Shown: piece after piece, positions 24,595 to 63,209 of the stretch
How the letters are laid out: each line of letters begins with the position of its first letter
Numbering within the stretch: position 1 is the stretch's first letter
Source: Schmidtea polychroa
Taxonomy: Eukaryota
Length of the DNA stretch: 64,000 nt
Direction of reading: 5' to 3'
Assembly: GCA_044892525.1 (NCBI GenBank)
Contig: CM097886.1
Location: 120,962,001 to 121,026,000 of the forward strand
Position numbers and translations under genes: made by a program
Notes under the pieces: model-generated
Database searches by the model: none
Told to the model about the DNA's origin: nothing
What the model saw: only the letters and a program-made list of their open reading frames with translations

Positions 24595-25260
24595 TGTTGG
24601 GCTGAACGTAAAAATAAATAATATAGCGGTTAATGGATAGGGACTGAATAAAGAAAGAAAAACAGGAAATAGGAAGCAAATAAAAATAATTAAATTTAGT
24701 AACAAATAGGATAAGAATATAAAATAATATGAAAAAACAAGAAAATAAAACTTAAACAAAGAAATAAGAGTAAAAGTATAAATAAAAACATGAAATATCG
24801 ATTTAAACTCAGAGAAAAGCCAAAATAGGCCGTTGCACCACCAAAAACCCATAAAATTAGGCGAAATTAGGAAAATAATAGAACAATAAAATAACAAAAT
24901 AAAATAAAATAATATATAATAAAAAAAAATGAATAAAGGAAAATAATCAAAAAACAACCCGACTCAATTATTATTGGTCAAAAATTAATATATAAAGCGG
25001 CCGCTAAATTAGTTAAGTAACGACTTAAACAATTCACTGCAGCTAAAATGATTTTTTATAGAACGACTTAAACAATTCACTACAGGTCAAACTTCTTCAA
25101 ATTCAATACAGGAACCACTACGAGGAATCAATTAAGCTTAACTACAGGGAATACTATTTAATCACGACCACAGGACCGAGAAATCACTGAGAAACTCTCA
25201 TTTAGAATTTCAAACGTATATCTAACACTCGGGACAATCCATTTAGTAAAATCTTAGCCG
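24595..25260 (+). promoter_or_regulatory. LTR-like promoter module P1
   Basis: Starts TGTTGGGCTGA (same as P3), A-rich tract, ATTGG at 24973, TATATAAA at 24989, GCGGCCGCTAAATTAGTTA. 3' boundary uncertain. Confidence 0.55.
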
Positions 25261-26485
25261 CAAGAGAAATCATTTTAATGTCGTCACATACTCGGAATCC
25301 AAACGGCATGGTCGCCGGTTAAAATTTGTTTATTTATTTTCATTATAATAGTAAAAAGAATTAAAACGAAACGAATATAATTTTCGTTACATTATATTAA
25401 TATCTCTAACATAAATAATCTGAATTGGAAAATATGTTTGGTCAGATGGTGCAGACATGGTGGACAGTGATGTCGGTGATGTGTGGGTGAGTTCTGGCGA
25501 GTGGAGGAACCAAAGCTGCTGACAGAGTATAGAGAATAATAAATGAAATCGGGCAGTTCGTATCGAGTGATATTCGGCAGTAATCTTCTGAAAAGTGATC
25601 GATGGCGTGCGTCTCAAGCTACATAACGTTCCAATACATTTGCTAACGAGGAGAAATTACCGAGATGTTCCAATCACGTAGATGAAATCTTCGGTTCCAT
25701 AAGAACCCTTGCCGGAATTGACATTCAACATCCAGATTCTTTTTTGTAATAAGAGACTCACGAATGCTAGGTGCTGCATCCACTTCCTTCATGATTTGTT
25801 ATCGATAAGAGCACGTCCGAGAGTCGGATACAGAGGTTGAAATTTAAGAAATGGCATGAATCCACCATGAACATGTGAACGGCGATATACAATCCATATT
25901 CTCGTCGAATTTCCGGGATAATCATCGCATTCACGAATCATCACGAACAGCGCTAATTCCCTTCATAGTTGACGATCACTTGAAATTCTTCTGATAAACA
26001 ATGGTTAGGCGAATCACCGTGCTGCGAGACCACCGAATTTTGCGAGATAATCATTTTCCATGACATGTCGATAAACAAATGCTGGAATAACATGGATTTT
26101 CTACGATCACTAGGCCTATCCATCAGTAATGCAAAGGTTTACATAAACATTGACATTAAAGAGAGATAATCACGAAAATCACGATGCGATCTCGAACCAC
26201 CGAGAACAAATGGTGTGCGATTGCAGGGAAATTAGACATGATTGATGACCTGATGCCTGATGTGGATGTTTGCGAGATAAATAACCGAAATCTTCTAAAC
26301 GACCAGATTACTACAGTCTGATTTTTTATTTGTTGATTAATTTTCTGTCAGCGGTGAGCTGAAGTAGAAATAAATATTTATGTCAGCATTAGATTTTTAC
26401 CCGATAAACTGGTCGTGGAAGATAACATGGCATTATGATATACACTGCATGAGGGATTCTCCAGCACACAAATTGTTAATTAGAT

Positions 26486-29240
26486 TAAAGATTGGAATCG
26501 AGAAATCTCGTATCGGGAATTCTCGAGACTTGTATATTTTTTTTATGTCTTGTTTCTCGAGAAGTGAAAAAGGTTAAAAAACGAGATTCTCGATTTCTCG
26601 AGATTTTATTTTCAAGTCCCGAGAAGGAAACCTTAAAATATTTCCCCATAGAAAATTCTTATTTATAGAAAATTCCCCAACAAATTATAATTTTTGACTT
26701 ATTTAATAGATGGTATATAATAGATAGTATATATTTATCACTCGATCCATAATACTTTTATTAAATTTCGAAAACCAATACTTTCAAATTATACAATTTA
26801 GTACATTTTTCTGTAGTTGCTGTGATAGCAATTGTTTTAAAAGTGCACAAAGCTAATTTTGTAATTTTAATTCTATTATTAAATTATTATTATATATTTA
26901 TACAAATCATACCAGAAAAAATTTAAATATTTCGTAAGTATTGATAATTAAATCATTTACAATTACAATCACAATTACTTTATTTAGAACTTAAAGTAAA
27001 GGGCTAAAGATGTCTGAAAATACCAAACCAAATGAGTATCAGAATTGTTGGCTAGAATTTGAAAGAAGTGAAGACCGAAATATGGCAATATGTAAATATT
27101 GCAAAAGTGAAATTAATTGCAAAGGATCAACAACAACTGGATTACACCGGCATTTAACAGCAAAACATGGTATGACCAAGACTTTGCAGGCTGGAAATAT
27201 AGGTTGCAAACGTATGAGAAGCAGTGCTACTACGAGCATAAATAATTATTTTAAACCAAAAAGTACACAACCACAAAGTCTTGGGGAAATTGTTTCAAAA
27301 CTAGCAGCGTTCGACAATATTCCCATTCAAAAAATTTCAAAATGTGAATTTATTCGAAAAAGTTTAGAATTACAAGGATTTGTTTTACCAAAATATCCAA
27401 CGGATATAATGAATATAATTTATAAATATTACAATGAAAAAAAAGATGATATTGTCAATAAAATAAAACTAATAAAATCAAAAAATCAAAAAATTTCTTT
27501 AAGTATTGACGAGTGGACCAGTTTTAGGAACCGACGATATTTAAATATACATATATATTATAATGCAAGTGGTATGTCGGAAAATCTAGGACTAGTTCGT
27601 ATACATGGTAGCTGCCCGGCAGATAAAATGGTCGATTTAGTAAATGAAAAGTTAAATTCATTTAATATTAGTTTTGATAAAGATATTATTGCCACTACAA
27701 GTGATGGTGCAAGCGTTATGGTAAAATTTGGAACTTTATCACCAGCTTTGTTGCAGCTATGTTACAATCATGCTTTACATTTGGCAGTCCTTAAAATATT
27801 TTATTCAAATAAAAATAATGAACATGAACATTCTTCAGATTCTGATTCATCAGATGATGTTGAAGACAATTTATTTTCAGATGAAGATAATAATTTAACA
27901 CAGGAAACATTTTTATTGAATGATATAGATGATATAAAACTAACAATTCTAAAAATTCGAATAATTGTTAAAAAATTTAAAAATTCCCCTGTACGAAATT
28001 CTGTTCTTCAAAAATATGTAAATGAAGTAGAAAATAAAGATCTACATTTATTACTTGACTGCAAAACAAGATGGAATAGTATGATCACAATGATAGAACG
28101 ATTTTTAAGGTTGATTGAACCAATAAAAAAAACGCTAATAGATTTAAATTTTTATGATTTATGGGATAATAATTTTACTCTTAAAGCAAAAAATATTTTA
28201 GAAGCGTTAAAACCAGTAGAAATTGCTGTTGAAGCATTATCCAGACAAGACACAAATTTATTAACATCGGAAGGAATATTAAGATTTTTGTTCGAATCGT
28301 TGACTGAGCAGAGTACACATTTAAAAGCCGTATTACTTACTGAAATAACAGATCAAATTTCGAAAAGGAGAAATGTACCTTTAGTCTCATTAATTAAATT
28401 TTTAAATAATCCCAATTCCTTAAATGCTGATGCAAAAGATTTTTTCAAATCTGCTTCGAAAAATGAAATGTTAAAAGTAGCAAAATCTATTATGCTGAAA
28501 ATTAATAAAAATGATGGTGATGGTGAAGGAGCTGTTGTTGGTGTTGGTGATCATCCAAATAATTGTGAGGAGAATAATATTGAAATAATTGAAATTGATA
28601 AATCTGCTGAAAAAACATTAAAAGAAAAACTTGAAGATTCGATCAACAATTGTTTGGCAACAGCTGAAATAAAAACAAATGTAAATTTATTATTAAAGGA
28701 AATGAATTTATACGAAATAAATGGACAAATTTCCCAAAACTTATTCAAAATAAAAGAATGTTTACTGACTATCAGACCAACATCAACACAAAATGAAAGA
28801 AACTTTTCAACAGCAGTAAATATAGTAACTAAAAAACGAACACGTTTAACTGACAAAGCAATTGATGCACTTTGTTTTTTAAAATTTTATTTCACAAATA
28901 TCAATAAATAAAAAATATTATATTTGTTTTTGTGGTATATTTGGTATAATATCATATGATGTATTAAATTTTCTATTTTTGCTATATATTCTTTAGTTTT
29001 GTAGTGAATAGTGTTAGTTTTAATTGTGTTAGTTTTATTTGAATACAATTTTTTTCTTTGAAATTTTCTTGTTTTCTCATTTTTTATAAACTATTTCAGA
29101 TTCTTTAATTTCTCGGAAAATTTCCCGGGTCCTGAAATTTCTTGAACGAGACTCTCGCTTTCTCGAGAATCATAATATTGCAAAAAACGAGACTCTCGGA
29201 TTCTCGAGAAATTAAAAAAGTTGAGAAATCCCAATCTCTA
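26486..29240 (+). mobile_element. Full-length hAT element (Ac/ZBED-like)
   Basis: TIR TA(A/G)AGATTGG(A/G)AT. 8-bp TSD AATTAGAT/GATTAGAT. TCTCGAGA subterminal repeats. Confidence 0.92.
27010..28911 (+). CDS. Intact hAT transposase with BED zinc finger
   Basis: 633 aa with CKYC...HLTAKH BED finger, SLSIDEWTS, TSDGASVM, CYNHALHL, CKTRWNS and PTSTQNERNFS. Confidence 0.95.
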   Translation: MSENTKPNEYQNCWLEFERSEDRNMAICKYCKSEINCKGSTTTGLHRHLTAKHGMTKTLQAGNIGCKRMRSSATTSINNYFKPKSTQPQSLGEIVSKLAAFDNIPIQKISKCEFIRKSLELQGFVLPKYPTDIMNIIYKYYNEKKDDIVNKIKLIKSKNQKISLSIDEWTSFRNRRYLNIHIYYNASGMSENLGLVRIHGSCPADKMVDLVNEKLNSFNISFDKDIIATTSDGASVMVKFGTLSPALLQLCYNHALHLAVLKIFYSNKNNEHEHSSDSDSSDDVEDNLFSDEDNNLTQETFLLNDIDDIKLTILKIRIIVKKFKNSPVRNSVLQKYVNEVENKDLHLLLDCKTRWNSMITMIERFLRLIEPIKKTLIDLNFYDLWDNNFTLKAKNILEALKPVEIAVEALSRQDTNLLTSEGILRFLFESLTEQSTHLKAVLLTEITDQISKRRNVPLVSLIKFLNNPNSLNADAKDFFKSASKNEMLKVAKSIMLKINKNDGDGEGAVVGVGDHPNNCEENNIEIIEIDKSAEKTLKEKLEDSINNCLATAEIKTNVNLLLKEMNLYEINGQISQNLFKIKECLLTIRPTSTQNERNFSTAVNIVTKKRTRLTDKAIDALCFLKFYFTNINK

Positions 29241-29736
29241 GATTAGATGACCTTACTTAGCAGTAATTTGTGTTAATGGTAAATTTATTTTGTTTTAACT
29301 GATAAATTGAATTAAGTGCAAATAAAGATAAATAAAATATTCAGGTTAATAACAATTTCTTTTCTGATAATTTTGTTAAAGTAAGATAAATAAAATAGTC
29401 AAGGTAATAATAATTTTTCAAATGTAAATTTCTAAATAACGTTTTCTTCATTGACAAAATAAGACAATATATTTTTTTTGTGTCATAATAATCTTCAAAG
29501 GTAAATTACACATGAGATAATTAGTAAAGGAAATGATGAGATGTAATAAATCAAATTTTGTTTGTGATCAAGTCTCCGTTCCCAGCGCTCTAATGTTAAT
29601 CAACTCAATTTAATACTAGTAGGAGTGATGATATCGTATAAGGGGATTGGTAAAATGACAAGTATTATCAAACTTTCTTCTGCATCCTATTCCGTCACAT
29701 TGTTATTTTAAATTATCATACCAACTTATCTTCAGA

Positions 29737-30462
29737 ATGTGTGAACCAAGCTTGCCGCCAAAAGGTCTGCAGTCATGCTTCTCATGCGCTGGTAAAAATG
29801 CAGACATAAAGATGCTGCAGGAGTACAATGGGGCTCTTAAGAAGCGGATCGAATATTATGAGGGTACGTGGTTCTCCCCACCACAAATGAAGGAGGAGCG
29901 AGCGAAAATATTGCGGCTGGAGCACTGTCGTGACAGTCTCCTGGAAGAAAGCCGTTGCCAACGGCTGACCATCAAAGCCCAGTCGGAGGCTCTCCACAAG
30001 ATCTATACTGAGAAAGAAATTCTACAAAGGGTTCGAGAATACCCGGTCATTGATGGGACTAATGTCTTCCCAGTACATCACCAACAAGGAAATCCGCAAC
30101 CCTCTAAGTCTCATTGAAGTGGGCATGGAAATGATTTCCCACCTCTCATCGTCCCAATATAGTCGGGATCTTCTAAAACAAATGACACCTCGACGGTGAA
30201 AGTCATCAATTCTGATTCTATGCCCAAGAAGCGGAAACGACCATCACGGGCCGAGAAAAACCAGAAGCGAAGGGATACCATCGCTGCTTTGGAGGCATCT
30301 CTGTTCGCTGCCCAGTCGTCTAGGAAACGAAGTCCAAAGGTTCAAGTACCTGTCTCAACCGGGGATTTTCGAATTATCTCCACTGAAATGTGTCAACTTC
30401 GAAAAGATGCCCGGCTACAGATGGATATAGACGCCCTGTTAATGGAGGGCGAGATGCAGTAA
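29737..30462 (+). pseudogene. ORF-X copy B (disrupted around 30060-30200)
   Basis: ATG follows acceptor CTTATCTTCAG. MCEPSLPPKGLQSCFSC...EHCRDSLLEESRCQRL. A second fragment carries KKRKRPSRAEKNQKRRDTIAALEASLFA and DIDALL. Confidence 0.85.
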
Positions 30463-30715
30463 TGAATGCCAACCATTCCGCACTCCGGATCCGGAATGCT
30501 GATATATCCTATGTACTCTACGTATAATGAACTGTGTTTTGCATGAATATCTTACATTTTTCATGTCGTTTAAATAAAAGTATTAGTATTAAAGCTGTTG
30601 TGTTAAATCTGACCATGTGATTTGAGTGTTTGAAAGTGACAAAATCTAAATAAACCAGTTCGATGTTTGAAAGACGTCCCTTGGACCAGGACGCAAGTTG
30701 GTGTACAAAAATGAG

Positions 30716-30855
30716 GTAAGGCCTTCTATGGCACTCGCGAACCCGCATTGTGAAGTCTACCGGGAGTAGTTCTAACATAGGAGCTCACCTGCTGGTAGAT
30801 TCCAACCTATGTGTACGATACCAGCGTGTTACACCATCACGGGTACACATAAGGG
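30716..30855 (+). ncRNA. Structured RNA motif M1 (unknown family)
   Basis: GTAAGGCCTTCTA; CTACCGG-GAG-TAGT-hairpin-GCTC-ACCTG-CTGGTAG; TATGTGTAC/GTACACATA stem enclosing GATACCAGC and a hairpin. Confidence 0.7.
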
Positions 30856-31059
30856 AGACGATTGCAATATCATGAAGGTTGTTTAGGGCATGTTATCTCT
30901 TTCCCCTTTGTAACCAACATAAGTTTAAACTGCATACAAATCAAGCCAACAGGGAATGATTTTATATTTCATTTAAGATGGATTTAAATTATGAAATGAG
31001 TTTCATATTTTGATTTTCGATTTAATTCAAAAGGATCGACCTGGGAGTAGTTAAATTAA

Positions 31060-31350: not shown

Positions 31351-31904
31351 ATTAACGATTTAAATTATATTTGTTTGGTCAGACCATTTCACATTTTTGT
31401 TTGTCAGATTGAATTATAATTAAAAAATGTTAATGCAATTTGGCCTAAATCGGACAAAATTTCTTAGCTACCGAACCTTGTTAGCTGGAAACTGAGTGTA
31501 ATACTCGAGTCGTTACTTAAGTTCCTTACCTTTCCTCCGTAGATAATGGTAGTAAGTGGTGTCATCGACATTGGTCCAGGTAATAAAATTTATATCTCCT
31601 TTTTGGTTTATTTTTAGTGATGGTGATTTTCCCTTATTTTCCAATTATTCTGACTGCAAATCTTCGGTATATGATGAAATTCGGATTATGGTAATATTAA
31701 ACTCTCGAAATCGGATTTTTTCGTTTCTCAAATACCTGATTTGTTCTAATAAACAAAATGTTGTTATTATTTTTATTTCGTAACAATGCAATGTAACAAG
31801 GTATCAAAGATGGTTGAATTTATTATATAGCGGCGAACCCTCGAGCTATTTCCTGGTTATCGCTTGACTCCTGTTGGGTAGTCGTGATTTTAGTTGTTGA
31901 TATT

Positions 31905-32037
31905 CCCGTACGTACACCGTGATGATGGTTCACGTTGGTACACAGGTCGGAACTGATGGACAGGTCAGCATCTGCGTTAAGACTACTATCCACCAAATTC
32001 ACAGTGCAGGTTCCTGGTTGCCGATAGAAGGCCTTAC
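31905..32037 (-). ncRNA. Structured RNA motif M2
   Basis: GTAAGGCCTTCTATCGGC; TGGTGGA-TAG-TAGT-hairpin-GCTG-ACCTG-TCCATCA; GTAC-CAAC-GTGA..TCAC-GG-TGTAC. Confidence 0.7.
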
Positions 32038-32291
32038 CCCTTAATATTCGCCTCTGGTCCGGCGAGACGGTCATTATACCTACATATTCAGTCATGTCAC
32101 ATCCCTCATGTTTACACGCGCAATTGACGTTCTTTATTACCTTATTTATTCACTTGCTTTTTTGCCCAATTCGATTTTCGATTCCTAATTTAATTAACCA
32201 AAATCTCAGATAATTCAGACGCCCTCCTTATCACAGACCTCGAAAGTTATAAAATGAATAGCAATTTAACATCAAAGATTTATTGACAATA

Positions 32292-32790
32292 GGAAGCATC
32301 AATTAAGGACGTCCCATAAAATAAGCACTTTTTGACCCCCTTGTCCCTTTTCTGGAGACCTCCCGACGGAGACATCCGTCCGAAAACAGAACTCCCTTAT
32401 TTTCAGACGAAATTTAGAACATAAAATTATAATATTAGGCAGATTATTTTGTTGCTGGTAATACATAATATTGTTTAAGCTTTAGTAAAAATTGTCCAAA
32501 TTTAAAGAGAATCCATTTTTTAAAACAAAATTAATAAAGTGTTGGGACAAAACTGTAATATTAAACTAATATTGATACAGGAGCATAATTTAATGAAATA
32601 GGGTGCTAGGTTATAGGCTACAAGTTTGCAACTCTTACTAAGAGATGGGAGATAATGTTCAAATAATAGGGGTGTTGGGTAGGTATTAGGTTTAGTCTGA
32701 GGATGTCCTAAGCACTTGGACCCCCTCCCCCATTGTCCCTCTGTAGAGACCCCCCCTCCCTCTTAGTGAACGTCCTTAATGGATGCTCCC
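32292..32790. mobile_element. MITE between ORF-X copy C and motif M2
   Basis: Inverted ends GG(A/G)AGCATC(A/C)ATTAAGGACGT; TSD not resolved. Confidence 0.7.
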
Positions 32791-32917
32791 ATAAAACATA
32801 TTTAGACACCGAAAAACAGACTCAAATCAAGCAATGGAATCATTCCTCACATATATTGTCTCAGAGTTTCCAAATAGTGTGGTCCCGTAGAGTTCATATT
32901 CATTGGGAATATATGCA

Positions 32918-33603
32918 TCAGATAGTAGCGTCTTCGGCTAGTAATGCATCAATATCGGCCTGAATCCAGGGGTCGTTTGGAGCCGAGGTTTTACCCGACG
33001 AAATTATCCGGAATTGATCAGGAGTGGCGACTGGAAGAATAACAGAGATGTTCGCGAACAAAGATGTCTCGAGCGCTGTACGTTTAGCTCTTTCGCTTCT
33101 TTACGCCACTCTGTGATGTTGTACTGACATTTATCGAGACGATGTTAGGCGCAGGATTGACGATACCTGGTCCTGCCGAGGGAATCAATACCGTGTTCCC
33201 ACTGAGAATCGGGTCGACAATTTTAGTCAGCTCAGGCCCATGACTGGTGCAAGACGATGCCACTGGTACGCTTACTTCATCGGTATTATGATGTAAGGGG
33301 AATATATTAACCCCATCTTTGATTGGGGACTCTCGTATTCTCCACTGCATCTCCGATTCGGTATTGCGCTTTTATCGTGAGCCTCTGGCATCTACTCTCT
33401 TCTAGGAAACTGTCACGGCAGTGCTCCAATCTCAGAACTTTCATCATATCCTCTTTCATTTGTGGTGGGAGAACCACGTGTGTTCGAGCGTTTCAATACG
33501 CTGTTTCAGAACCCCTGTGTCTGAAGTTTTCGAATATCGGCATTCTTGTCGGAGCACGAGAAACACATCTCGGCTCCTTTTGTGGTAGACTGGGCTCACA
33601 CAT
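32918..33603 (-). pseudogene. ORF-X copy C (several frameshifts)
   Basis: Acceptor TTTTTCTTCAG then MCEPSLP; CFSCSDKNADI; WFSPPQMKE..KVLRLEHCRDSFLEESRCQRLTIKAQ; ALETSLFA; DIDALLAE. Confidence 0.85.
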
Positions 33604-35487
33604 TATTCTGAAGAAAAACGATGAACTTATTTCCGCCAAAATACTCCCCTCCTTCCCATCTACTCTTTCCAATCTCTCACGAATACCCCATCCCCTTCAA
33701 TCATCATCGGCAATTCCCCAATTCCCTTTACAAAGTGTCCTTGACGGATAAGTTTAATTTAAACATTTAATTAACGGTTGAGGGTTCATGGATCGATAAA
33801 TGAAGTAATTATTATTATTGTATACTAAAATTTAAGAATTCCTAGTTTCCGAAATTACTTAACGTCATATTGTTGAGTTAGAGTTATATATATTTCACTT
33901 TATGATTTCGAATTTACCGTATTGTATTCTTACAAATTTTTTAAGGTAAGTACTATTTAACGTGATAATTAAATAAGTCTATAAGTAACAATTTTTGCGT
34001 TGGAATTTGGCGAGTTTTACTATATCCTTATTTGACTAAACGACAAGATGAGAAAAACTCTAGAAAACTTTCCACTTGGGGGAGTCGAGTGTATCGACTT
34101 TTTACTATAGGCTTATGTCCCTATTACTTTATTATCAAACTACATGTACTTAATTGTCTGTTTGCATTTACTACTTGGAGATTATGTAATCATTGGATGT
34201 TTGTTTATTAGTTTCAAACATCATTAATTAGATTTAGTGCTGTGAATTCGGTTCCTGTTTTATGTAAATAGACGGTTTGGTGAAATCTCCAAATTTTTTA
34301 TAAACATTAATTCGCCATTGATAAACAAAGCTGGGATCGCCGAGATATCTGTAAGCTCTACCCTACCATGGCGATTGTTTATGATTCGTCGACGTCGATG
34401 ATTGTGACTTAATGTTACGTGAATATTGGAAGATTTTATCCCACGTATGATATTAGTATTATTTCTATCAGATTGTCTTAGATTGAATTCGAATCTCTAT
34501 GTCGCTTACTGGACTACCCCTGGTAACTACTTACAAAGGTGTTCATCGTGTTCAAGAGTTCCATTTCCAGCTACTTATCTAAAAACGGAAGAAATTCTGC
34601 GAATGATCAATTTTCCACTATAGTTGTACGAAAATCCAAACTCTCATCATCTATATTCTCAGGACATTCTATCATTCTACGCATTTCTCTACTCGCCCCT
34701 CGAAAATGGCATTTGCTACTCTCGTTATCATATAAAATGTGAAACTGGCATCATTGATCCATCCACCCTGCATGGTACACTCAAAAAGCCACCGGTGCAA
34801 GCACTGACTACCTTCGAACGACCTTACAACACGGTTCGATCATTATAACAATTAAATAATTATAATAATAAAAATTATCTATTCTGCAAAATTAGAATAA
34901 TACTAAAAATCTATTTGGTGAATTAAAATAATAATCATAAAATTCCCACCGATGACCATATCACCTGATCCCGTGCATGAATGTTTCATTCATTGGATTC
35001 TTCCCGATTTCGAAACTTTCATAACCAATTTTCCGGAATTTCACATGGATAATTTCTATTTTCGGCGATTTGCATGCCATATTGAAAATCATAATAATGC
35101 TCTCTATCCATGCACGGCTCCTCAGGCAATATCGTCCGCAGGGCCCATCATGAAGAGAGAAAATGAAATTCAATGAAAATCTTTTAATTAAGTAAATGTT
35201 TTAATTCTGATTTATACAATAATTTATCATAAGACTGCTTAATAAAAATTTCATAACGATTAATATCAAATAAACTAAATAAAATAAACAGTAAATTACT
35301 TTTCCGTATATAAGTCTATGAATCGAAACAAGATTTCTACTGATTGTTCTCTCGAAATGGTCCCTCGAAATATGATTAATTAATCTTAATAGTATTTATT
35401 TCTGTATGAATCTGTCGTCAGGTCCTTCGGAGTTTTGAATGCTAAGTTGTCCTGTCGTATAAATTTAAAAGTTGCCTAACTAACTTA

Positions 35488-35900
35488 GCGGCCGCTATAT
35501 ATACTAATTTTTATCCAATCAGGACGCGATTGGTGTGTTTCTTATTATTTTCTTTGGTTTTTATAGCTTATTTGTCAATTTTAATTTATTCTTTTATTTA
35601 TTTTTCTATTCATTCTGAATTTTGACGTATTCCTTCGGCTGATTCTTTCCTAATTGGTTAATTTTAGTCCTTATTTTGCGTTTTAGATTGTTTCTTACTT
35701 ATTTCTTTTAATTTTTATTAATATTCTTATTTTATTCGGTTATTTATTTTATTAATTTTGTCGGTTTATTCAGTCTGTGTTGTTGGTTATTTATTATGGG
35801 ATTCTCATTTGTCGTTTTTTATTATTTTTTCAATTATTTAATTTCCCTTTTTCTTTTATTTAACTCGCCCATTTTTCCTGTTGTTGTAATTTAATTTCAG
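35488..35900 (-). promoter_or_regulatory. LTR-like promoter module P2
   Basis: Minus strand: A-rich tract, ATTGG at 35519-35515, TATATATA at 35503-35496, GCGGCCGCTAAGTTAGTTA (near-identical to P1). Confidence 0.55.
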
Positions 35901-36479
35901 ATGGGTTAGTTCCATTATTTTGGTGACTCCTGACTTTTTTGGTTTCCGTAATCTTATTACGACTTTTGTTAGTTTTTGAACTTAGTTAACCTCATGGTTC
36001 TTATTAAATTTTTTCGATCATAGCTCTATTTCGATTCACAGTTTTACAATCCTATTTCGATTCTTGGCTTTTATCCCAACTCGCTTGGCTTTACATAAAT
36101 GCAAAAGGTAGGTTTTATTTGGTTCCGAGACATGGACTTAATGATGATACTATACCGAGTCACCTCCTGAAATTCACTCGATGAGGTGTGATGTAGGGTA
36201 TATGCCTATGCGTAGGGTTAACTGGTTTCTTGGCTTATGATTTTTAATATTTAAGTTAATCAATGTGTAACCATCCATGGAAATATTCTTAGAAAATATA
36301 ATTATTGAAAAAATTATTTAGTCAAATTCAATATCATTACAAAGTCATCATCAAAATCAAATAATTTATCCTATCATTTGATTATTGTAAAAACTCTAAC
36401 TATTAACCTAACTATCATTAAAAATAAATTTTTATTTAAAATTTAAAAACGAAGTCAATAAAAAATGCTTTATTATTAA

Positions 36480-38821: not shown

Positions 38822-38955
38822 CATAAACCCTTCTAACGACACTCAAGAACCCGTATGAAACTTAAAGTGGAGTAGTTATAAGATAGTAGCTCATCTGCCC
38901 TTTATTTTTCACTGACAGTGGGCAGTACCAACATGACGGTTGTCATGTGTACGTA
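38822..38955 (+). ncRNA. Structured RNA motif M3 (degenerate)
   Basis: CCTTCTA; TAAAG-TG-GAG-TAGT..GCTC-ATCTG-CC-CTTTA; CAGTACCAAC-ATGAC-GGTT-GTCAT. Confidence 0.6.
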
Positions 38956-39290
38956 CATTAGTCATTATTTTTATAAATCATGAGCGTTGAACTGAGTCAA
39001 CAATCAACTATGAGTTTTAGTTTTGTTTACTCAAACGCCAACAGAAATATTGATGTAAACTATTTCATGATAAAAATTTCTTTATAAATGTTGTTCTCCT
39101 ATAATTCGCTGAAAAACACTAAATAATTTTATGTTTGGAAATAAGAAAAAGCCGAAACAAATCAAGAATTTAGAAATTATTTATTCACAGTATGATTATT
39201 TCAACAGTTGTCTTTAAACAAGATTTTGTGATTGTAAATCTGTATCGGCGACAATGTATAATTCTCCGTCAACCTCATCAATTACCAGTA

Positions 39291-53749: not shown

Positions 53750-54464
53750 TTCTAAATCATGTTTAAAAAATAAAGAACGCAAATATATTTTAGTTTTATT
53801 TATTTAATTATTATTATGATAAATAATAATCTTTTAATTACCAAAATAAGCAAAAATTCAGTGAAAATCTCTGTATATTAGTTTAAAATAAAAGTTCAAT
53901 ATTCGGAACTAGTAAACAGTGAAAAGGCAAAATTAAATGATGAAAAAAACCAATGTCAATACTGTCATTTGTACATAGAGAATAAAGAATCGTGGTTTGA
54001 ATTTCATTCAAAACGATTGGAAAAGTGAAGCAATTTCTTGGTTTGTTATTAACCGGAATTATAATTTCAACTTGTGTAAATTCTATACAAAAAATGGGGT
54101 ATTAATTTGCATTATATAAAAGGTAAATTGTTTGGAATTCGTTCCATCTTGAACGGGAAATTACTATTACGATTAATATTATTAGTAATGACAGTAGTCT
54201 CTGGGGTAGCTTATATTTTCTGATATTGCTTGATTTTCTGATATTAAGAATGTTGTGTAAAACTACCCCCAATAGGCGGTAATAATCGGTGTCATAATGG
54301 TATTTCTTCATATAAATGTTGATTCCAGTGGTAAAGGGAGTTCTGTAAAATTTTGTCTTGTTTTTCTTTGCTATAATGTTGAAGTGGGGAAAAATTTGTG
54401 GTGATAAAGGAGTAATTGATTATGGAATCTCGAGATCTTGACCAATATTTCGAATACCGGAAAA

Positions 54465-54606
54465 GACTTAAGTCCTTCTATCGGCAGTCGAAAAGTGGAA
54501 AAGTCGAGTTAGGGTGAAGGAGTAGTCCTAAGGTAGGGGCTCACCTGCTTCATAGTAGTTCACCGGCATGGCACAGTACCAACATGATGTAAATCATCTG
54601 TCATGT
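54465..54606 (+). ncRNA. Structured RNA motif M5
   Basis: TAAGTCCTTCTATCGGC; TGAAG-GAG-TAGT-hairpin-GCTC-ACCTG-CTTCA; CATGGC..GTCATG stem enclosing ACAGTACCAAC and ATGAT-GTAA-ATCAT. Confidence 0.72.
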
Positions 54607-54607
54607 T

Positions 54608-55737
54608 GTGGAAATAATCGTGTGGGTTTTTGGTCAGCGGTCCGCAGAATATGCTGTAAGGTCATTCTTTTCGGACTATCATCCTCTAGTAATTAGTAAC
54701 CTCTTGTTGACCCTGCCGACTACCCAACAGTATAATGATATCCATAATGATGCCAATACTGTATCACCTCTTCATCCCGTGTCCTGCTTAGGCGATCATC
54801 CCTCTTCACCTCAAGTGGCCGCTCCAGGCAAAACTGAAAAATCGCAGAACAAGTTCTCTTCAAATTTCCAATTCCGTTGCGAAATGAGGAAACTCAACAA
54901 CTGGAAAAAATTCAAGGTAGACCCGAGTCATAAACACCGCGTTCGGGACCTTAACACCGCTCTTTCTCTTTAAACAGACCTGCCTCAGGATCCGGCTCTC
55001 TTGTCAATGCTCCTACGATATCGTGCAACGACACTGTGTATCTTACACCTGCTCTTTCACCCCCTCTTCTGTCTGCAACCATTACGGCTAGTGCAGCCAC
55101 CGACGTCATCTCACCCCAAATTGTTCAAAAGCTCATCCATACTCCAATTTTATCTCCTAACACAGATACAACTAACAACAAGCATATAACACCACAAACT
55201 CAAACTTCACAGACCCCCTCCTGAACACAGACCTCTTCCCAGAACTCCGACATCACTCATGACAACAATACACCACCGCGCAAAGTGACCATGGCCAACT
55301 TCTTTCTAACAATCAAACGACACAACCAAGCCACAGTCAACTTATATTCGTCGCCAACTGACAGGACAAGCAATAACACCCCGCCCCAATTTCATCAACC
55401 CAAACACTAACATGATGGCTCGGACCACCTCTTTTCTCTACCGTGACACAAATCGAAATCACCTGATAGCTCTATGTCCACTGTGAACCCTCAACAAATA
55501 AAGAAACTTCATCACAAGTCAAAAAACGCCCATAGCCGCAGATCATACTTTAACGATAAGCGTAATATCAATAACAGAATCGACAAAATGGAAAACGCCC
55601 TACATAAAATTGCCCACCATCTCACTAAACTGGCCTCTGACAAATATGGCATGGACGCCACGCGCCTGTCCCCAACGCACCCCAGCCTCTCCACATCTTA
55701 CCAGTTCGTTAATGAAGACTCACGCGTCGACTGCTAG
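54608..55737 (+). pseudogene. Degenerate Pro/Ser/Thr-rich ORF of unknown origin downstream of M5
   Basis: Locally GC-richer chain of short same-strand ORFs; no diagnostic motif recognised. Confidence 0.3.
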
Positions 55738-58240: not shown

Positions 58241-59644
58241 CAAAGTCGGGTTAGTGAATTATTTATTGTGAAATACGAAATATTACCAATACAGATTCCG
58301 TTAAGAAAATGATTCTACTGAAAAGATGGTGCGTGTTGTATAGGTGTTATATATTGTATATGCGAGTTATGTTGCTTGTAAAACCTTGAACGTTTTTGTT
58401 ATTTTACTGTTCTGGTTTAAAAATTAATAAGGATTTTCCCTTTATAGTTTACAGTAGAAATGGTAAAATATTTTGGCGGCCACTACTGATTTTGGGTCGC
58501 TATTTATATTATTTTCATGGGCGTTAACATAAGGAAATTTATTTATTTATTTAAAGCGTATGTCTTTGTTAAAATTTAATCATGTTTTTCTTTATATATT
58601 TATTTAGCTTTATATTAAAAATGTTCTTTGTTAAAATATAAAATTATGCTTTTATATATTTATTTAACTTTAAAAATATTTCCATTATTCTTTGTTAAAA
58701 AAATGTTATTCTTTCATTATTTGCTTAAGCCGAGCTGTCGCAAAATTCGTTTACTCGGGCCGAACTGTTATAATTTCTTCAAGCGTTGTTTTATTATATT
58801 TATTGCTCTAACGGAGCTGTTGTTCGTTTACAAATATCATTCAATAGAAATTATTAAAATTATTTAACGAGATTTAATTTGAAAATTATTCTATTTTTTT
58901 TGACAAAATTTAATTTGTAAATTTATTTTTATATTTTGAAAAGAAAATTTTCCCTTTAAATTATATAATTAAGTGTACATAACACAAAATAAATAAACCA
59001 TCAATGCATACGATATAAAAATGTTAATAATAAATTGTTCATCACATATTATATACAAGTTAACACGAGTTATCAAATTGTTTATTGAATAGATTTGATA
59101 TCGGAATTGAATTATATGGATTATATTGTATTGTCTGGTTTTGTCATTTTTCTTTATCTGATTTACGCATAAATATTAACTCTGTATCTATTAGCTCCTG
59201 TCCTATAATATTTTGTGAGTTTAAAATTTTCGATGACCCTGCCTCTGTCATCCAACAATAGTAAATAAATAAATTTAAAACATTTAAATGATGATGATAT
59301 TCAGAGTTTCAGTCTAAAATGGGAAACAATGGATGTTTATTTGCAAGTCGATTAAAATTGTGATCAATAATTAATATTGTGTATAATAAAATTTAAATGA
59401 ATTATATAAGTAGTGGGAAAGCGGTCCACTAAACCAGCGGCCCTCTGGGACAAAGAAATACCCCACCCCCCGGCATTAAAAAATTTTTTCAAAGTCAAAT
59501 TTTAAACAAAGGCATATGCTGGGGCACTACTCGGTTGACCACCCTTAATTCAACTTTTAGCCTAGGAGATGAATGCCCATTCCGATTATGCTTGTCATTA
59601 GTTTGCCAACCCCGAGCAGGACCCGTACATAACCTACTCTCCAA

Positions 59645-59787
59645 CATAGCACCCGTGAATTACTTCACGTTGGAACCGTGCTATGCCGGCGAGACGCCAG
59701 TAAGCAGGTGAGCCACTCCCTTCGGACTACTCCTTACTGAGGCCTCGACTTCCTACCCTTGACTGCCGATAGAAGGACTTACGTCTC
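59645..59787 (-). ncRNA. Structured RNA motif M6 (best preserved)
   Basis: GAGACGTAAGTCCTTCTATCGGC; CAGTAAG-GAG-TAG-TCC-GAAG-GGA-GTGG-CTC-ACCTG-CTTACTG; CATAGCAC-GGTTCCAAC-GTGAA-GTAA-TTCAC-GG-GTGCTATG. Confidence 0.75.
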
Positions 59788-60074
59788 TTTGTTCTGTCAC
59801 CCATCGCAATGCCTCTAGTTTGGGTTTCCAACTGACTAATACTTCTCGAATTTTAGAGTCTCTCAATATTATTTACCAACTTTGTACTGAACCTATTACA
59901 AAAGAAAATAAATATAAATAGACGAAAAATGGTTTATTTTTAACATTTATGTACAGATAGGTCGATAATTTACACAACAGAATCACAGGGATAAGAAGAA
60001 TGTAAGAACAGAAAACCGTTATTAGTTTGATTTCAGGATTCTCCGTAGGATGAGGTCGTTTCACAGGAAAGTTC

Positions 60075-60824
60075 TCATTTTTCCCACTCCGTGTCGGCCA
60101 GCAGTTCTTCCAGGTTGAAAAATTCGGAGGCGTTCTCCTCCCATGTTACCCCAGCGGCAGATATAATTCGCCCTGGTATGCCGGAGGTTAGATCAACCGT
60201 GGCAGGGAGTTCGTTGACTTGAATCGCGAGATCCGTTGGTTGCTGGAGCTGCTTCGCGGCTATTCGCTCCCGCTGCTTCTTTTTGCGTTCGGCCCTTGAT
60301 AATTGCCGACGCTTTGGCTTTGCGGTCGATGAATTGTTCGGGGCTGCTGCGGATGTAGAGGCGATGTTAGGCGGCACCTGACTATTTCCAACAAAGATAA
60401 CTTCAGGCTGTTCCGGCGAAAGTTGAGTTTCTACGCACGGCCGGCAAGACTTCTTAGAAGGAGGTGACGATCTGGCCGATGTGTCATGGTGTGCCGGAAA
60501 AAGATTGTCGGCTTCATGGATAGGAATTTTTACTATCTTCCTAGTGGTCGCTGCCTGTACATATACTTTGTGCAGCGCTTCGGACTGCTCCTTTATTAAG
60601 CTTCTTTGGGAACGACTCTCGGAGATTAGAGCGTCCCGACAATGTTCACTTCGGTATAACCTCTTCTGAGTTTCTTTCATCTGGGCGGGACTAAACCATG
60701 TCCCTTCTAACTCGTCTATTTTCCTCTTATACCGTCCAATCTGGGTCTGTAGGTCTTTGATTATTGCATTCTTGTCTGAACAAGAAAAGCAGGGTTTGAG
60801 AACAGGTCTTGAATTGGGTAACAT
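60075..60824 (-). CDS. ORF-X copy D, intact 249-aa unknown protein
   Basis: ATG follows TTTTCTTCATAGCCATCAG. PCFSCSDKNA, coiled coil, EGTWFSPAQMKE, EHCRDALISESRSQR, Arg/Lys-rich KRRQLSRAERKKKQRER and C-terminal FFNLEELL. Confidence 0.85.
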   Translation of the reverse strand: MLPNSRPVLKPCFSCSDKNAIIKDLQTQIGRYKRKIDELEGTWFSPAQMKETQKRLYRSEHCRDALISESRSQRSLIKEQSEALHKVYVQAATTRKIVKIPIHEADNLFPAHHDTSARSSPPSKKSCRPCVETQLSPEQPEVIFVGNSQVPPNIASTSAAAPNNSSTAKPKRRQLSRAERKKKQRERIAAKQLQQPTDLAIQVNELPATVDLTSGIPGRIISAAGVTWEENASEFFNLEELLADTEWEK

Positions 60825-62622
60825 ATCTGATGGCTATGAAGAAAAGATAGAACTAAAATAAGATAAACCAAATTATAACGTCATCATCCCGACACAATTA
60901 TTCGTCAACTAGGTATTCCTATAGAAAAGAAACGGGTAGCTAGCAAGAGGAGTTTCTTTGGATTCATCAATATTCATTCCCTCTGGATTATTTACTTACA
61001 AGAAAACTGACCGGCAACACATGACTGTGTCTAACGAAGGTAACGCATTATTGTTGAAAATGAAAATTACATGTTTATGAAATTATTACAAATTGAATTT
61101 GCCTTGAAAATGGTAAATAGTATTGAGGAGCTCAAACTAAAATACATGACTAATTTATAAAAGGAAATTATTCAATATGCAGATTTTATAGATAGATAGG
61201 TAAATCAATTGCAATTAATTATTAATTATAAATATTAACTTTTTTGAAATTCCAATAATGTGGACTTAAAACATCCGATCGCCGCTGTTGATTATCTGTG
61301 GCTAGTGTTAAATCCATTAATGACTGATGATTTTATCTATTGGTTGAAACTACACATGACGCACCAGGTAGGATTTCTCATGACAATTGTTCGCTGCGAA
61401 TCTGCCTACTGCTATTGGATAACTGAACAATTCTAATGCTTGTGACGCATGGAAAATTATTTTCGTACGATTGCGCTTAATCATGATTGTGTTGTCACTG
61501 ATGGGTATTCTCATACGGGTTCCGTTTACTGGAATTCACAATTTGTGCCTGTGCCTGTATGCGTGTGTATTCACTCCATGGAACTTTAATCCGATTTACA
61601 TGTTGCGTGGATTTTCAGATGTTACCTCACACTGCTTTGGATTGCTGTCCATCAGAAAAATTAAATTAGGAAATTCTCTCTCGTCGTAACTGTTGGATAT
61701 ATTGCTTCGTGGATGAATTATTCAACTATTCAAGATACATGCACCGATCTTAACTCGTGGATATCGACCATCTCGGAATTTATACAAATATGAATTTTTA
61801 TGCACTATCTCCTATGTAAGTATGTCAAAATTTGTTTTCCTTTTATGTAATCAAATAAAGATCTTTGCATATTTTGTCTTGTTTTCGATTGTATATTGAT
61901 GATATATATACATAGCTATTCTACTGCCAAAATAAGTGTTTTTAAACTACATTCATTGTTAGAACCGAGTATGAGTGGCAATTTCGAGGTGAAGGAATAA
62001 TCTACAGACAGATGATGCTTACTCTATTAACGAAAATGACAGATCTAGACCTACGGTTGACGGTGACACTAAATTTTCAGATTACGAGAATTTTAGTTTG
62101 AAGAATTATTGTAGATACGAAGACTTTTGACTCGCTCAGTCACTGTGATTCGCTGCTACTACTTTTCCTACAAATTAGATTGATTCCACTCCTTCTTTCT
62201 GATTATTCCAGAGACATTTTAGAGTGTCCTTCAGCGACGGACCCGTGAGGAAGCCCCCACATTACGGCCCGAATCAGCTGCGTGATTGAAACGTCCCACA
62301 CCCACCGGATGAGCACCCGAAGGCCCATTACACCATGGTATGGAACGTCTCAACTCCACGTTCCTCGTGAGATTAAAATCATAAAATAATAACCCATAAA
62401 AACAATTATAAAAATCTAGAATAACTCGTTTATTATTAGTGATTACGATTAAGCAGCTAAATTATTTAATAAATTAAACTCATTATTACGGAATCAAACG
62501 AAAAGAAAATCATTTCAAATTAAAAATTTAATTATTTCGCAAATATACATGATCATTATTAACCGTTTAAAATAAAACAAAAATATAAAATAAAATGTCC
62601 TTACTAAGTGTTTTAAATAGAT

Positions 62623-63209
62623 TTATAGGCTGAGTCGGAAGGTACTGGATCGAATTAAGTATTAGTCGAAGTCTAAGTAGATTTTTAACTGCGGATGTGC
62701 TAATGTTTCTGGTTTCTGAATCGAATTCCTGTAGGTCGCTGTTGTCTGTAAAATTTTGGAGTTAACTGTGTACTATAGAAATTTCACTTACCTGTAAAAT
62801 TTTGGAGTTAACTGTAATTTTAATGATTTTGGTGCCTGTTTATATAGTAATTTTTTATTTGTGCGGACCAATCAGAATTGAGTACCGCTTAATTTTGTTA
62901 CTTTAATTAATTTTTCTTGTTTTTTGGTTATTTCTTCCTATTTTCTTTATTTTTAATATATTTTCTATTTATTTTCTTTAATTTCCTTATTATTTACTGA
63001 ATTCTACGTTATTTTCCGTCATTCTATTGTCCTATTTTAATTTATTTTATTTTTATAATTTTTGTTTTAATTCTTATTTTCTAATTATTGTTTTTCTTAT
63101 ATCTTACTCTATTTTATTCGTAAATTTGTTATTTTATTTTTACTTTCCTCGCATCCTGCTTATTTTACTCTCTTAATTTTCAAAATTAATTTTCCGACTC
63201 AGCCCAACA
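62623..63209 (-). promoter_or_regulatory. LTR-like promoter module P3
   Basis: Starts TGTTGGGCTGAGTCGGAA. ATTGG at 62872-62868, CTATATAAA at 62847-62839, donor-like CAG|GTAAGT at ~62792. 13-bp inverted repeat GGCTGAGTCGGAA at both ends. Confidence 0.6.

Follow-up and report, generated by a model that had tools for sequence, protein, structure and literature searches.

A gene and covarying RNA structures inside the long terminal repeats of Burro-type gypsy retroelements in Schmidtea polychroa

Introduction

The regulatory proteins Rev of HIV and Rex of HTLV are made from spliced mRNA, contain a basic helix and are paired with RNA structures (RRE and RxRE, respectively) that are present only in unspliced RNA. 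MMTV sag and HIV nef are open reading frames (ORFs) that overlap the long terminal repeat (LTR); they are located within U3, and the promoters that transcribe them lie upstream. In foamy viruses, the regulator Tas has an N-terminal DNA-binding domain and a C-terminal activation domain (PMC12282171). The gypsy element Cer1 of C. elegans encodes CERV, a nuclear protein made from spliced mRNA, indicating that an invertebrate gypsy element can have a Rev-like factor (PMC10309623). Planarian Burro elements encode a polyprotein with an in-frame fusion glycoprotein and the same domain set as that described below (PMC6431247, section 7).

Here we analyse a 64,000-nucleotide (nt) stretch of Schmidtea polychroa DNA (hereafter referred to as the window). 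A preliminary description had proposed that three diverged cassettes (B, C and D) each contain a promoter, a spliced ORF (ORF-X) and a structured RNA (M), and that ORF-X and M might form a Rev/Rex-like pair in an uncharacterised invertebrate retroelement.

The cassettes are LTRs of giant gypsy retroelements

The three cassettes were found about where, and in the order in which, they had been described.

24595..30919, + strand: solo LTR B (Burro-type), with TG...CA ends and a flanking 4-bp target duplication, TAAG
31872..36081, − strand: decayed solo LTR C, with its 5′ end set from relatives and a target duplication that is not clean
59517..63209, − strand: LTR D, the 3,693-bp 3′ LTR of an RT-bearing Burro-type element
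63210..63247, − strand: conserved hairpin immediately upstream of 3′ LTR D, at the expected place of the polypurine tract
63484..64000, − strand: 3′ part of a 192-amino-acid (aa) accessory ORF with hydrophobic segments

Their ends had been placed about right, although B and D reach slightly further out than was given. It is virtually certain that B, C and D are LTRs, and by their architecture the elements are Burro-type giant gypsy retroelements. As had been guessed, the cassette is the very long LTR of an RT-bearing retroelement: beyond position 64000, where the preliminary description advised looking, the element bearing D, which extends outside the window, carries gag, RT, RH and IN. Its 5′ LTR lies 33–64 kb past the window, is 99.6% identical to D and has the target duplication TATG. 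Paired copies lying 26–26.4 kb apart are 99.9% identical, and the LTRs of three elements other than that of D reach this value. TG...CA ends with matching 4-bp duplications are present in 12 of the 14 LTRs or elements for which both ends were read, including B and D of the window, and the two misses are L190 and window C. The primer site, located 7 nt past the LTR end, is an 18-nt complement of the tRNA-Pro(TGG) of this genome. A polypurine tract was not seen before the 3′ LTR, and a conserved hairpin takes its place at 11 of 11 loci with upstream sequence.

The polyprotein frame of 4,732 aa comprises gag, CCHC, a fusion glycoprotein, PR, RT, RH and IN, together with weak matches to ubiquitin and Bcl-2 (the latter with E = 0.06), and the element carries TRAF-MATH (E = 4e-26) and RING (E = 1e-11) cargo. 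The accessory ORF preceding D had been called env-like; we rejected this identity because the ORF has no Pfam match, and the fusion glycoprotein (PF24664, E = 4e-70) sits instead within the polyprotein, ahead of PR, RT, RH and IN. Elements of this type measure 30.2 kb and 30.6 kb.

These features resemble those of Burro/GYPSM1 in PMC6431247 (section 7), which describes elements of ~30 kb with one ~4,700-aa polyprotein, zinc knuckles, TRAF/MATH and RING ORFs and thousands of copies, with the fusion glycoprotein in frame between gag and PR and followed by PR-RT-RH-IN. The element class thus fits a published architecture and cannot be called uncharacterised. By contrast, the TRAF/MATH ORF follows pol in the elements here, unlike in the described Burro, and section 7 of PMC6431247 mentions neither a gene nor an intron nor an RNA structure within the LTR. 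A Burro LTR gene is not described in the literature searched; that coverage does not extend to Grohme 2018, Lee 2026 (Dev Cell) or the supplements of either, which may describe one.

ORF-X is a gene under purifying selection

The window contains four ORF-X copies, and among cassettes B, C and D only D has an intact one.

3842..4761, + strand: fourth ORF-X copy (A-type), in a truncated LTR fragment with no M within 1.5 kb
29737..30462, + strand: ORF-X of B, with two in-frame stops (30115 and 30160) and the acceptor CAG in front
32918..33603, − strand: ORF-X of C, with frameshifts and stops
60075..60824, − strand: intact 249-aa ORF-X of D, with a CxxC motif, coiled coil, linker, basic helix and acidic tail
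26486..29240, + strand: hAT transposon in B, with a BED finger and a hAT dimerisation domain
26995–28911, + strand: 638-aa hAT transposase in B
32292..32790, no strand assigned: MITE-like insert of C, bounded by inverted ends and located between the stop and M

The spacings reported earlier were reproduced. The distance from TATA to ATG is 2,022 bp in D (62846 to 60824; ~2.02 kb claimed), 1,898 bp in C (35501 to 33603; ~1.90 kb claimed) and ~1,985 bp in B (24989 to 29737; ~1.98 kb claimed) once the 2,755-bp hAT insertion and its 8-bp duplication are subtracted from the raw 4,748 bp. The stop-to-M distance of D, given as ~290 bp, is 292 bp; in C, the stop and M are separated by the insert of ~500 bp.

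ORF-X is a real gene, as had been supposed. It lies inside the LTR and is under purifying selection: 28 intact, non-redundant copies encode 243–253 aa, and the whole-ORF dN/dS is 0.09, 0.15, 0.20 and 0.08 in four families (0.04–0.10 for the N-terminal domain), as calculated from intact copies only, with dS near saturation. Many other copies are broken, and one young family is without ORF-X, as might be expected of a captured passenger or a decaying ORF with no function for the element. This explanation is already largely refuted, and hardly credible, given the dN/dS of 0.08–0.20, the conservation of length, start and acceptor across families that are 33–36% identical, and the existence of ORF-X relatives in another organism.

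Predicted architecture of the ORF-X protein

The basic segment and acidic C-terminus of the preliminary description are both present. The Lys/Arg-rich basic helix is conserved and may be just a nuclear localisation signal. Net charge over the final 20 residues lies between −3 and −8 in 26 of the 28 copies, and the extreme C-terminus has a conserved hydrophobic-acidic pattern of the kind that typifies acidic activation domains. ORF-X is predicted to dimerise as a coiled coil and to bear a basic helix and an acidic tail. The homodimer model scores 0.57, compared with 0.00 for the best control, with pLDDT of at least 73 and runs agreeing in at least 73% of contacts. In microbes, 21 of 30 solved pairs but none of 23 single chains passed the dimer mark, and in animals 7 of 16 pairs did; the prediction was made without the alignment, and a pass may reflect generic coiled coils.

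At E ≤ 0.001, the full-length model (pTM 0.33) matches no viral structure and the N-terminal model (pLDDT 83.7) no PDB entry; the best Z of the N-terminal model, 9.2 to unrelated helical proteins, is generic. ORF-X has no Pfam match, no specific structural match and no recognisable DNA- or RNA-binding fold. A word-based protein search returned 608 candidates, none at E ≤ 0.001, and the first matches in a protein atlas (0.82) gave no family.

Relatives of ORF-X exist in another organism, with an arginine run far more Rev-like than that of ORF-X here. One of them, P0004, weakly matches Pfam REV (E = 0.0013; 19.1 bits, under the cutoff of 22), whereas the ORF-X proteins of the window have no match to this family. 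A class-1a export-type leucine-spaced motif is present in two of the nine distant relatives scanned. For P0003 and P0007, the best matches in this genome are ~40–44% over the N-terminal part, and neither has a close copy here. We also observed that ORF-X relatives get fused into host gene models.

Predicted transcription start, splicing and long R region

The predicted expression signals of B and D are as follows.

24989..25085, + strand: B promoter, with a TATA box and tandem 24-nt copies (25019–25042 and 25062–25085), the first donor mutated
62746..62873, − strand: D promoter, with a CCAAT box (62873), TATA (62846) and a putative start site
62815–62792, − strand: predicted first exon of D; the mini-intron ends in an identical second copy (62769–62746)
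62626..62642, − strand: inverted copy of the first bases of the LTR, at the end of exon 2 before the large-intron donor (D)
60834..62604, − strand: predicted large intron of D, GT...AG
62228..62375, − strand: M2, a long covarying stem within the large intron of D, present in the D family as well as in the N family, which lacks ORF-X
59933..59938, − strand: predicted AATAAA poly(A) signal of D, 136 nt past the ORF-X stop

Of 28 LTR promoters, 21 carry a family-specific duplicate, with 0–1 mismatch, whose start lies +26 to +31 from TATA, and its first copy continues into GT in 19 of these 21. Copying of a spliced cap end onto the second copy at the first strand transfer would be expected to give this pattern. 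The duplicate, starting ~30 nt past TATA, points to an R region of ~3 kb, and by the same argument packaged RNA would usually still contain the large intron. Such an R is far longer than in well-studied retroelements. We infer a layout with a U3 of ~0.4–0.55 kb, a start site ~30 nt past TATA, an R of ~3 kb and a U5 of ~0.4 kb containing M, followed by the tRNA-Pro primer site. Within R, the putative order is a 24-nt exon, the mini-intron, exon 2, the large intron with M2, ORF-X and the poly(A) signal. AATAAA is found 109–164 nt past the ORF-X stop in only 18 of the 28 copies, and the R/U5 border therefore stays inferred.

The splice acceptor postulated in front of ORF-X, an AG just before the ATG, appears to work, as judged from the exact loss of a GT-AG intron of ~1.7 kb in L055, a relative of the B family and the one such genomic copy among 121 screened. 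At its left break, 5 of 10 relatives continue with GTAAGT and three with GTGAGT, while two have a changed donor; at its right break, 3 of 3 relatives have TAG/CAG. Five other shortened LTRs have non-splice deletions or no defined breakpoint, with no GT-AG breaks. No joint was found at the predicted acceptor of D among the 15 joints listed of 54 (four contig runs), and depth tracked conservation, also in a non-RNA run. Pairing between U3 and exon 2, assessed without a shuffle control, is predicted and is weak in L191 and L192.

M and M2 are covarying RNA structures

Seven copies of M are present in the whole window.

23814..23970, − strand: extra M copy, diverged
30708..30876, + strand: M of B (163.5 bits; B belongs to the model training set)
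31886..32045, − strand: M of C
38815..38984, + strand: extra M copy, followed by an LTR-type end
40248..40414, + strand: extra M copy, followed by an LTR-type end
54460..54624, + strand: extra M copy, with an LTR-type end at ~54728
59626..59790, − strand: M of D, in the predicted U5, opening with a donor-like GTAAG motif at 59782

Consistent with the earlier proposal, M is, judging from its covariation, a conserved RNA structure downstream of the poly(A) signal. Its core pattern has 4,281 exact matches in the genome, a lower bound since only exact patterns were counted, compared with 0 for the reversed control. Single-sequence folding is modest (z = −2.29 and −0.99), and the support for a structure comes from covariation. 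No Rfam family matches M at gathering score in the window, where the one hit was a chance snoRNA match in D (E = 1.6); a known ribozyme or Rfam family was rejected for M on these grounds.

The proposed coupling of M to ORF-X did not survive. Eight of the first 30 M sites have no ORF-X upstream, and M is retained, together with M2, the primer site and the pre-LTR hairpin, in a complete young element of 15.6 kb that has 99.9% identical 1,645-bp LTRs and gag, with no pol and no ORF-X. Nor is M placed as a 3′ response element, since by position it marks the 5′ end of the genomic RNA. Its retention in non-autonomous, ORF-X-less elements suggests that M is a cis signal of the genomic RNA.

M, which is universal, falls within the predicted U5 close to the primer site, and the ORF-X protein is a predicted basic dimer that has candidate zinc ligands. 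These features would be accommodated if ORF-X were an accessory with a structural or chaperone function, bound to M in the particle and serving RNA dimerisation, packaging or the copying of a 3-kb strong-stop DNA. We consider this role quite improbable, because gag itself contains zinc knuckles, a nuclear role would suit the NLS-like helix and the acidic hydrophobic tail, and an extended pairing between the 5′ part of M and tRNA-Pro is no better than shuffles in most families. In the 11 LTRs analysed for this pairing, which we rejected, the best cases (B, L192 and L106) had 1–2 of 25 shuffles as good, and the other eight gave no signal.

M2 also covaries, with double-sided changes at 16 of 46 pairs across 12 sequences, and is kept by the ORF-X-less N family. 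By position, both M and M2 fit a Rev-type response element, and M2 is the better candidate. It is in this light that ORF-X could be a factor like Rev, Rex or CERV, which would bind a structure in intron-retaining RNA (an M2-type stem rather than M) and license both retention and export of the genomic RNA. Such a factor would suit a spliced early mRNA and an intron-retaining genome. It would also suit the location of M2 in the intron, the stable folds at a similar place in the introns of E, L106 and L192 (z = −2.5 to −4.9; none in L186) and the Rev-like arginine runs of distant relatives, and CERV of Cer1 provides a gypsy precedent (PMC10309623). Nevertheless, we regard this explanation as rather unlikely, though it remains a serious rival. 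Export-type motifs, identified by regular expression, are scattered in ORF-X, occupy no position shared across families and are absent from 5 of the 28 intact copies, including the young L106, which argues against a nuclear-export factor. The predicted long parallel coiled coil stands apart from the basic helix, an architecture unlike that of Rev, and the cap-proximal mini-intron and U3 pairing would offer protein-independent routes to export and intron retention.

The Rev/Rex analogy holds for an LTR with a spliced gene and a structured RNA, and finds no support in a link between M and ORF-X or in a conserved export signal. Like Rev and Rex, ORF-X has a basic helix and comes from a spliced mRNA (n = 1 genomic copy), with structured RNA in the unspliced or read-through RNA only; unlike their response elements, M lies in the predicted U5 and occurs in elements without the protein, and the predicted protein architecture is different.

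Indications of LTR exchange and trans action

In one pair of elements, RT-RH is 99.6% identical (4-fold sites 2.5% apart), whereas ORF-X is just 64% identical (4-fold sites 71% apart), and we count this sequence divergence for LTR exchange among elements. The retention of M, M2, primer site and hairpin in the 15.6-kb ORF-X-less element counts for action in trans.

LTRs that are exchanged and diverge far faster than pol, and M without ORF-X, would also suit a counter-defence or host-modulating protein, one that opposes silencing by piRNAs or chromatin, works without a specific RNA element and leaves M and M2 as unrelated cis signals. Burro1 is a target of SMEDWI-2 (PMC8532177), and the element carries many host-modulating domains (also PMC6431247). 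This explanation appears improbable, since selection on ORF-X within families is strongly purifying and not diversifying, and ORF-X is similar to no listed family.

A model for ORF-X function

ORF-X is probably a functional trans-acting regulator of the element. As to how it acts, we tentatively favour a dimeric nuclear transactivator that would boost the full-length RNA of its own element, with each autonomous LTR carrying ORF-X; this role is preferred to Rev-like export because there is no conserved export signal. By default, the LTR would give rise to a short, spliced mRNA for ORF-X that terminates at the LTR poly(A) signal. Its product would form dimers via the coiled coil and enter the nucleus, where the basic helix would bind nucleic acid, either the cognate LTR DNA or a nascent intronic stem. 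Much as with Tas or Tat, transcription machinery recruited by the acidic tail would then increase initiation or read-through of the 30-kb RNA. The cis role of M would be played at the 5′ end of the genomic RNA, in suppressing 5′ polyadenylation via the donor-like GTAAG, in packaging or at the start of reverse transcription. U3 pairing beside the large-intron donor would fold the 3′ LTR differently from the 5′ LTR. With gene and target in one LTR, the two would travel together when LTRs are exchanged. The implied retention of the large intron in packaged RNA would pose a post-transcriptional problem that an activator alone would not solve, which speaks against the transactivator. The lack of a recognisable DNA- or RNA-binding fold and the more Rev-like arginine run of the distant relatives are further observations on that side.

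As in MMTV sag and HIV nef, the coding frame is duplicated along with the LTR, whereas ORF-X would lie in an R of ~3 kb and be expressible from a solo LTR. Like foamy virus Tas, ORF-X would be an accessory regulator with a C-terminal activation domain, the activation being predicted from its acidic-hydrophobic tail; the promoter of Tas is internal and lies outside the LTR, whereas ORF-X is wholly inside the LTR, behind the LTR TATA (PMC12282171). The likeness is one of layout, and we do not claim homology. In the foamy virus LTR, a donor lies upstream of the poly(A) signal and is hidden by a U3 fold specific to the 3′ LTR, which parallels the U3–exon 2 pairing predicted here (PMC3694450). CERV is likewise a novel protein with conserved cysteines and predicted self-association, but it is a large three-domain protein, and ORF-X is set beside it by description only (PMC10309623).

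A fuller picture, which remains doubtful as a whole, would cast Burro as a complex gypsy element in which the LTR, with an intron-containing R of ~3 kb, forms a self-contained regulatory module that can be swapped. This R would encode a new family of dimeric regulator that binds its own family-specific RNA stem and shifts LTR output away from a short spliced message towards the 30-kb genome; the whole R would be copied to the cap during reverse transcription, ORF-X-less parasites would use the protein in trans, and thousands of solo LTRs would be potential ORF-X expression units in planarian stem cells.

Implications

The Burro class is already known; the gene inside its LTR appears in none of the literature searched. 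Planarian genomes are rich in Burro elements, Burro1 reportedly supports regeneration and the survival of stem cells (cited in PMC13465017), and what is at issue is the self-regulation of a 30-kb retroelement. The locus offers several handles on this question: an LTR gene expressible by solo LTRs, predicted start, splice and poly(A) sites, two covarying RNAs and an R of ~3 kb. The gene is also relevant to genome annotation, because its relatives end up in host gene models. If ORF-X regulates its own element, Burro would have layered control as in complex retroviruses, and if it is an activator or a Rev-like factor, it would represent an independent invention of complex-retrovirus regulation in gypsy elements, alongside CERV.

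Cassettes as LTRs of Burro-type retroelements

The window holds three cassettes, B, C and D, as the preliminary description had it. B carries a hAT element and C a MITE-like insert, and with both subtracted the spacings agree. Their gene, ORF-X, encodes 249 aa in D, where it is intact, whereas the copies in B and C are broken; the window also carries a fourth ORF-X fragment and, in total, seven copies of M, a structured RNA near the cassette end. A protein search of the genome returned ORF-X matches paired about 26 kb apart, with near-identical pair members. One such pair encloses an element of 30.2 kb, whose 4,158-bp repeats are 99.9% identical and whose ORFs encode a RING protein, a 4,732-aa polyprotein, a TRAF/MATH protein, two coiled-coil-like proteins and a hydrophobic protein of about 220 aa. 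The polyprotein contains Pfam gag, zinc-knuckle, fusion glycoprotein (E 4e-70), PR, RT, RNase H and integrase domains, together with weak ubiquitin and Bcl-2 matches. This architecture agrees with the published Burro/GYPSM1 elements of planarians (PMC6431247), and the element, judged by its sequence, is of this already known class. In the literature searched, which was incomplete in coverage, no gene, intron or RNA structure is described for a Burro LTR.

The link of the cassettes to RT-bearing elements, one of the proposals at the outset, is borne out: D is the 3′ LTR of an element whose interior, beyond the window, encodes gag, RT, RNase H and integrase, interrupted by stops. Its 5′ LTR, also beyond the window, is 99.6% identical to D, with target duplication TATG. 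This 5′ LTR is split (L037 and L034, 33–64 kb beyond the window) by 27 kb of other sequence, and a 746-bp stretch is present in it twice, reflecting a rearrangement or an assembly artefact. Cassette B is a solo LTR with target duplication TAAG, and C is a decayed solo LTR. Both ends were read for 14 LTRs or elements, and 12 of these have matching 4-bp target duplications. The primer site exactly complements 18 nt of a tRNA-Pro(TGG) gene from the same genome; the tRNA-Pro(TGG) pattern has 2,167 matches genome-wide, and one locus (L111, G000:C1:130.90 Mb) holds an array of such genes with 475-bp spacing. Protein searches with three ORF-X types yielded 7,008, 6,473 and 5,494 first-look candidates in the 781-Mb genome, which are not copy numbers, 150 having been scored per search. 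The exact M core pattern matched 4,281 times, versus 0 for a control pattern.

No polypurine tract precedes the 3′ LTR in the window (63210–63247, minus strand) or at 10 other loci. Its position is occupied at these loci by a conserved element in which a GGGNCCC-type motif comes after a hairpin of 7 bp and could pair alternatively with the hairpin loop, and this element is kept in autonomous and non-autonomous elements alike. The ORF upstream of D, earlier called env-like, has no Pfam match and proved to be the last accessory ORF of the element, possibly encoding a small membrane protein. This ORF diverges fast (23% between two elements with RTs 97% identical).

Features in the window
63484–64000 (minus strand; also L040:8095–8751): last accessory ORF, 190–220 aa, with N-terminal and internal hydrophobic segments
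12051–16782: 983-aa ORF with proteasome-subunit fragment, ubiquitin and DUF1759 (BEL/Pao-type gag); the locus includes an 878-bp exact direct repeat
8434–11928 and 18132–22662: large inverted repeat, up to 98% identical, enclosing the 983-aa ORF
508–2971, 42835–45122, 48532–50181 and 51865–53592: further hAT-like transposase ORFs, intact or broken

The ORF-X protein

ORF-X is a real gene under selection. We collected 38 intact copies (28 non-redundant, 243–253 aa); the D protein shares 33–36% identity with the other three families, and certain Cys, His and Trp residues are invariant. Among intact copies only, with saturated pairs dropped, pairwise dN/dS is 0.09 for D (n = 11), 0.15 for B (n = 4), 0.20 for A (n = 11) and 0.08 for E (n = 2), and 0.04–0.10 for the N-terminal domain.

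Pfam, protein and structure searches assigned ORF-X to no known family or specific fold. The structure model comprises helices at residues 13–40 and 46–98, a disordered linker, a basic helix (177–193) and a short terminal helix. Modelled as a homodimer with zinc, the N-terminal domain is predicted to form a parallel coiled coil (score 0.57, versus 0.00 for the best of three controls), with contact agreement of at least 73% and pLDDT of at least 73 across runs. Of the solved microbial pairs, 21 of 30 reached the mark used for dimers, against 0 of 23 microbial single chains; among animal pairs, 7 of 16 reached it. The model thus supports dimerization, short of proof. We infer such a dimer, a nuclear location and any binding by the protein.

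A profile run against 1.84 billion proteins found 16 relatives (P0001–P0016), which come from another organism than the source genome. Most are chimeric gene models with the ORF-X-like part fused to host genes; in the public gene models of that organism, they appear as exons wrongly joined to these genes. The relatives retain the helical core without CxxC and carry arginine runs, which we take to resemble those of Rev, and one has a Pfam REV match below cutoff. Several have an arginine run, a PPPY motif and an acidic aromatic segment.

Splicing and LTR transcript layout

In our proposed layout, the LTR runs from U3 and TATA box through a short exon 1, mini-intron, exon 2 and large intron to ORF-X, AATAAA and M. 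A promoter-like module lies within 1.5 kb of ORF-X at 7 of 121 screened loci. One, L055, aligns to its relatives as two pieces, with about 1.7 kb absent between them; at the left break, a GT donor continues in 8 of 10 relatives, and at the right break, an AG acceptor directly precedes the ATG context in 3 of 3. By its sequence, L055 arose by reverse transcription of a spliced LTR RNA and was afterwards truncated within M, which shows that promoter exon and ORF-X are joined on an RNA extending as far as M. This intron-less B-type LTR sits nested in a solo LTR of C type, within its intron (L212/L235, G000:C1:86442200–86448717). Among the other six loci, the five that were checked have no splice-type breakpoints.

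An 18–30-nt duplicate begins +26 to +31 from the TATA box in 21 of 28 LTR promoters (omitting four spurious hits and counting L052 and L222 once). Its copies differ by 0–1 mismatch within an LTR but differ between families, and GT directly follows copy 1 in 19 of the 21. Copy 1 may thus be the first exon, and the spacer plus copy 2 an intron of about 46 nt; the spliced cap end, copied onto copy 2 at first strand transfer, would keep the copies alike. This reading puts the predicted start site near +30 and gives a predicted R of about 3 kb. The poly(A) site is likewise putative: AATAAA lies 109–164 nt past the ORF-X stop in 18 of 28 copies and at 196 in one, and is absent in nine. Public contigs yielded no usable signs of expression.

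A comparison of 25 LTRs, made without a shuffle control, shows complementarity between the first ~45 nt of U3 and the end of exon 2, immediately upstream of the large-intron donor. Family-specific perfect stems of 13–17 bp occur in E, L106, N1, N3, the C family and one B subfamily, and are absent in L191 and L192. The pairing could form only where the RNA includes U3. It parallels a fold of foamy viruses that is specific to the 3′ LTR and blocks U1 binding (PMC3694450). Alternatively, it might circularize the genome, by analogy with CYC5/CYC3 in Ty1 (PMC3592414).

The RNA structures M and M2

An alignment of 31 diverse M copies gives 31 predicted pairs, of which 23 show double-sided changes. 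Paired cells reach 92%, versus 74% in shuffles (0/500) and 35–45% in slid controls, and the excess of G-U (113) over A-C (12) favours the sense strand as the RNA. GTAAG stands at the start of M in 86 of 107 copies. M lies about 150 nt beyond AATAAA and 100–260 nt short of the LTR end, and therefore in the predicted U5. Inside the large intron, a second block of about 130 nt, M2, is 79–82% identical between the D family and the short-LTR, ORF-X-less family described below and is predicted to form a long stem, in which 16 of 46 pairs covary (12 sequences). The introns of E, L106 and L192 have stable folds in a comparable position, the L186 intron none.

The preliminary description had treated ORF-X and M as a pair. 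Starting from ORF-X, M is found at 72 of 90 loci (71 on the same strand; part of the 90 had trained the M model), with 0 of 5 in internal 10-kb controls. Starting from M, ORF-X lies upstream of 22 of the first 30 sites on C1, and the remaining eight, without it, resemble one short-LTR family. A complete member of that family, young and non-autonomous (L203–L204, G000:C1:5728807–5744375; 15.6 kb, 1,645-bp LTRs 99.9% identical) carries an 877-aa gag-like ORF and a 52-bp tandem array, without pol or ORF-X, and shares the primer site, pre-LTR hairpin and M with ORF-X-bearing elements. Because it retains M, the RNA probably requires M in cis, with or without ORF-X on it. LTRs identical to those of this element occur in L034/L036, and one copy of the family lies within the interruption of the 5′ LTR of D.

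Possible roles of ORF-X

At the C-terminus, the four families have one conserved feature in common, an acidic hydrophobic motif, whereas export-type motifs are scattered and absent from 5 of 28 intact copies; for this reason we tentatively favour a transactivator-like role. The foamy virus transactivator Tas has the layout proposed here, a nucleic-acid-binding part and a C-terminal activation domain (PMC12282171). A Rev-like factor is the less likely rival; it draws support from the need to keep the large intron, from M2 and from the arginine runs and sub-cutoff REV match of the distant relatives, and CERV of Cer1 offers a gypsy precedent (PMC10309623). A counter-defence protein seems improbable, and a particle accessory more improbable still.

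LTR turnover

Two elements that are 99.6% identical in RT–RNase H (fourfold sites 2.5% apart) have ORF-X proteins with 64% identity (fourfold sites 71% apart). The LTRs of E and C1 barely align, whereas the interiors of the two share 79% identity across 18 kb. These comparisons suggest that LTRs, with the gene and cis elements inside them, are exchanged as modules, or that they turn over far faster than pol.
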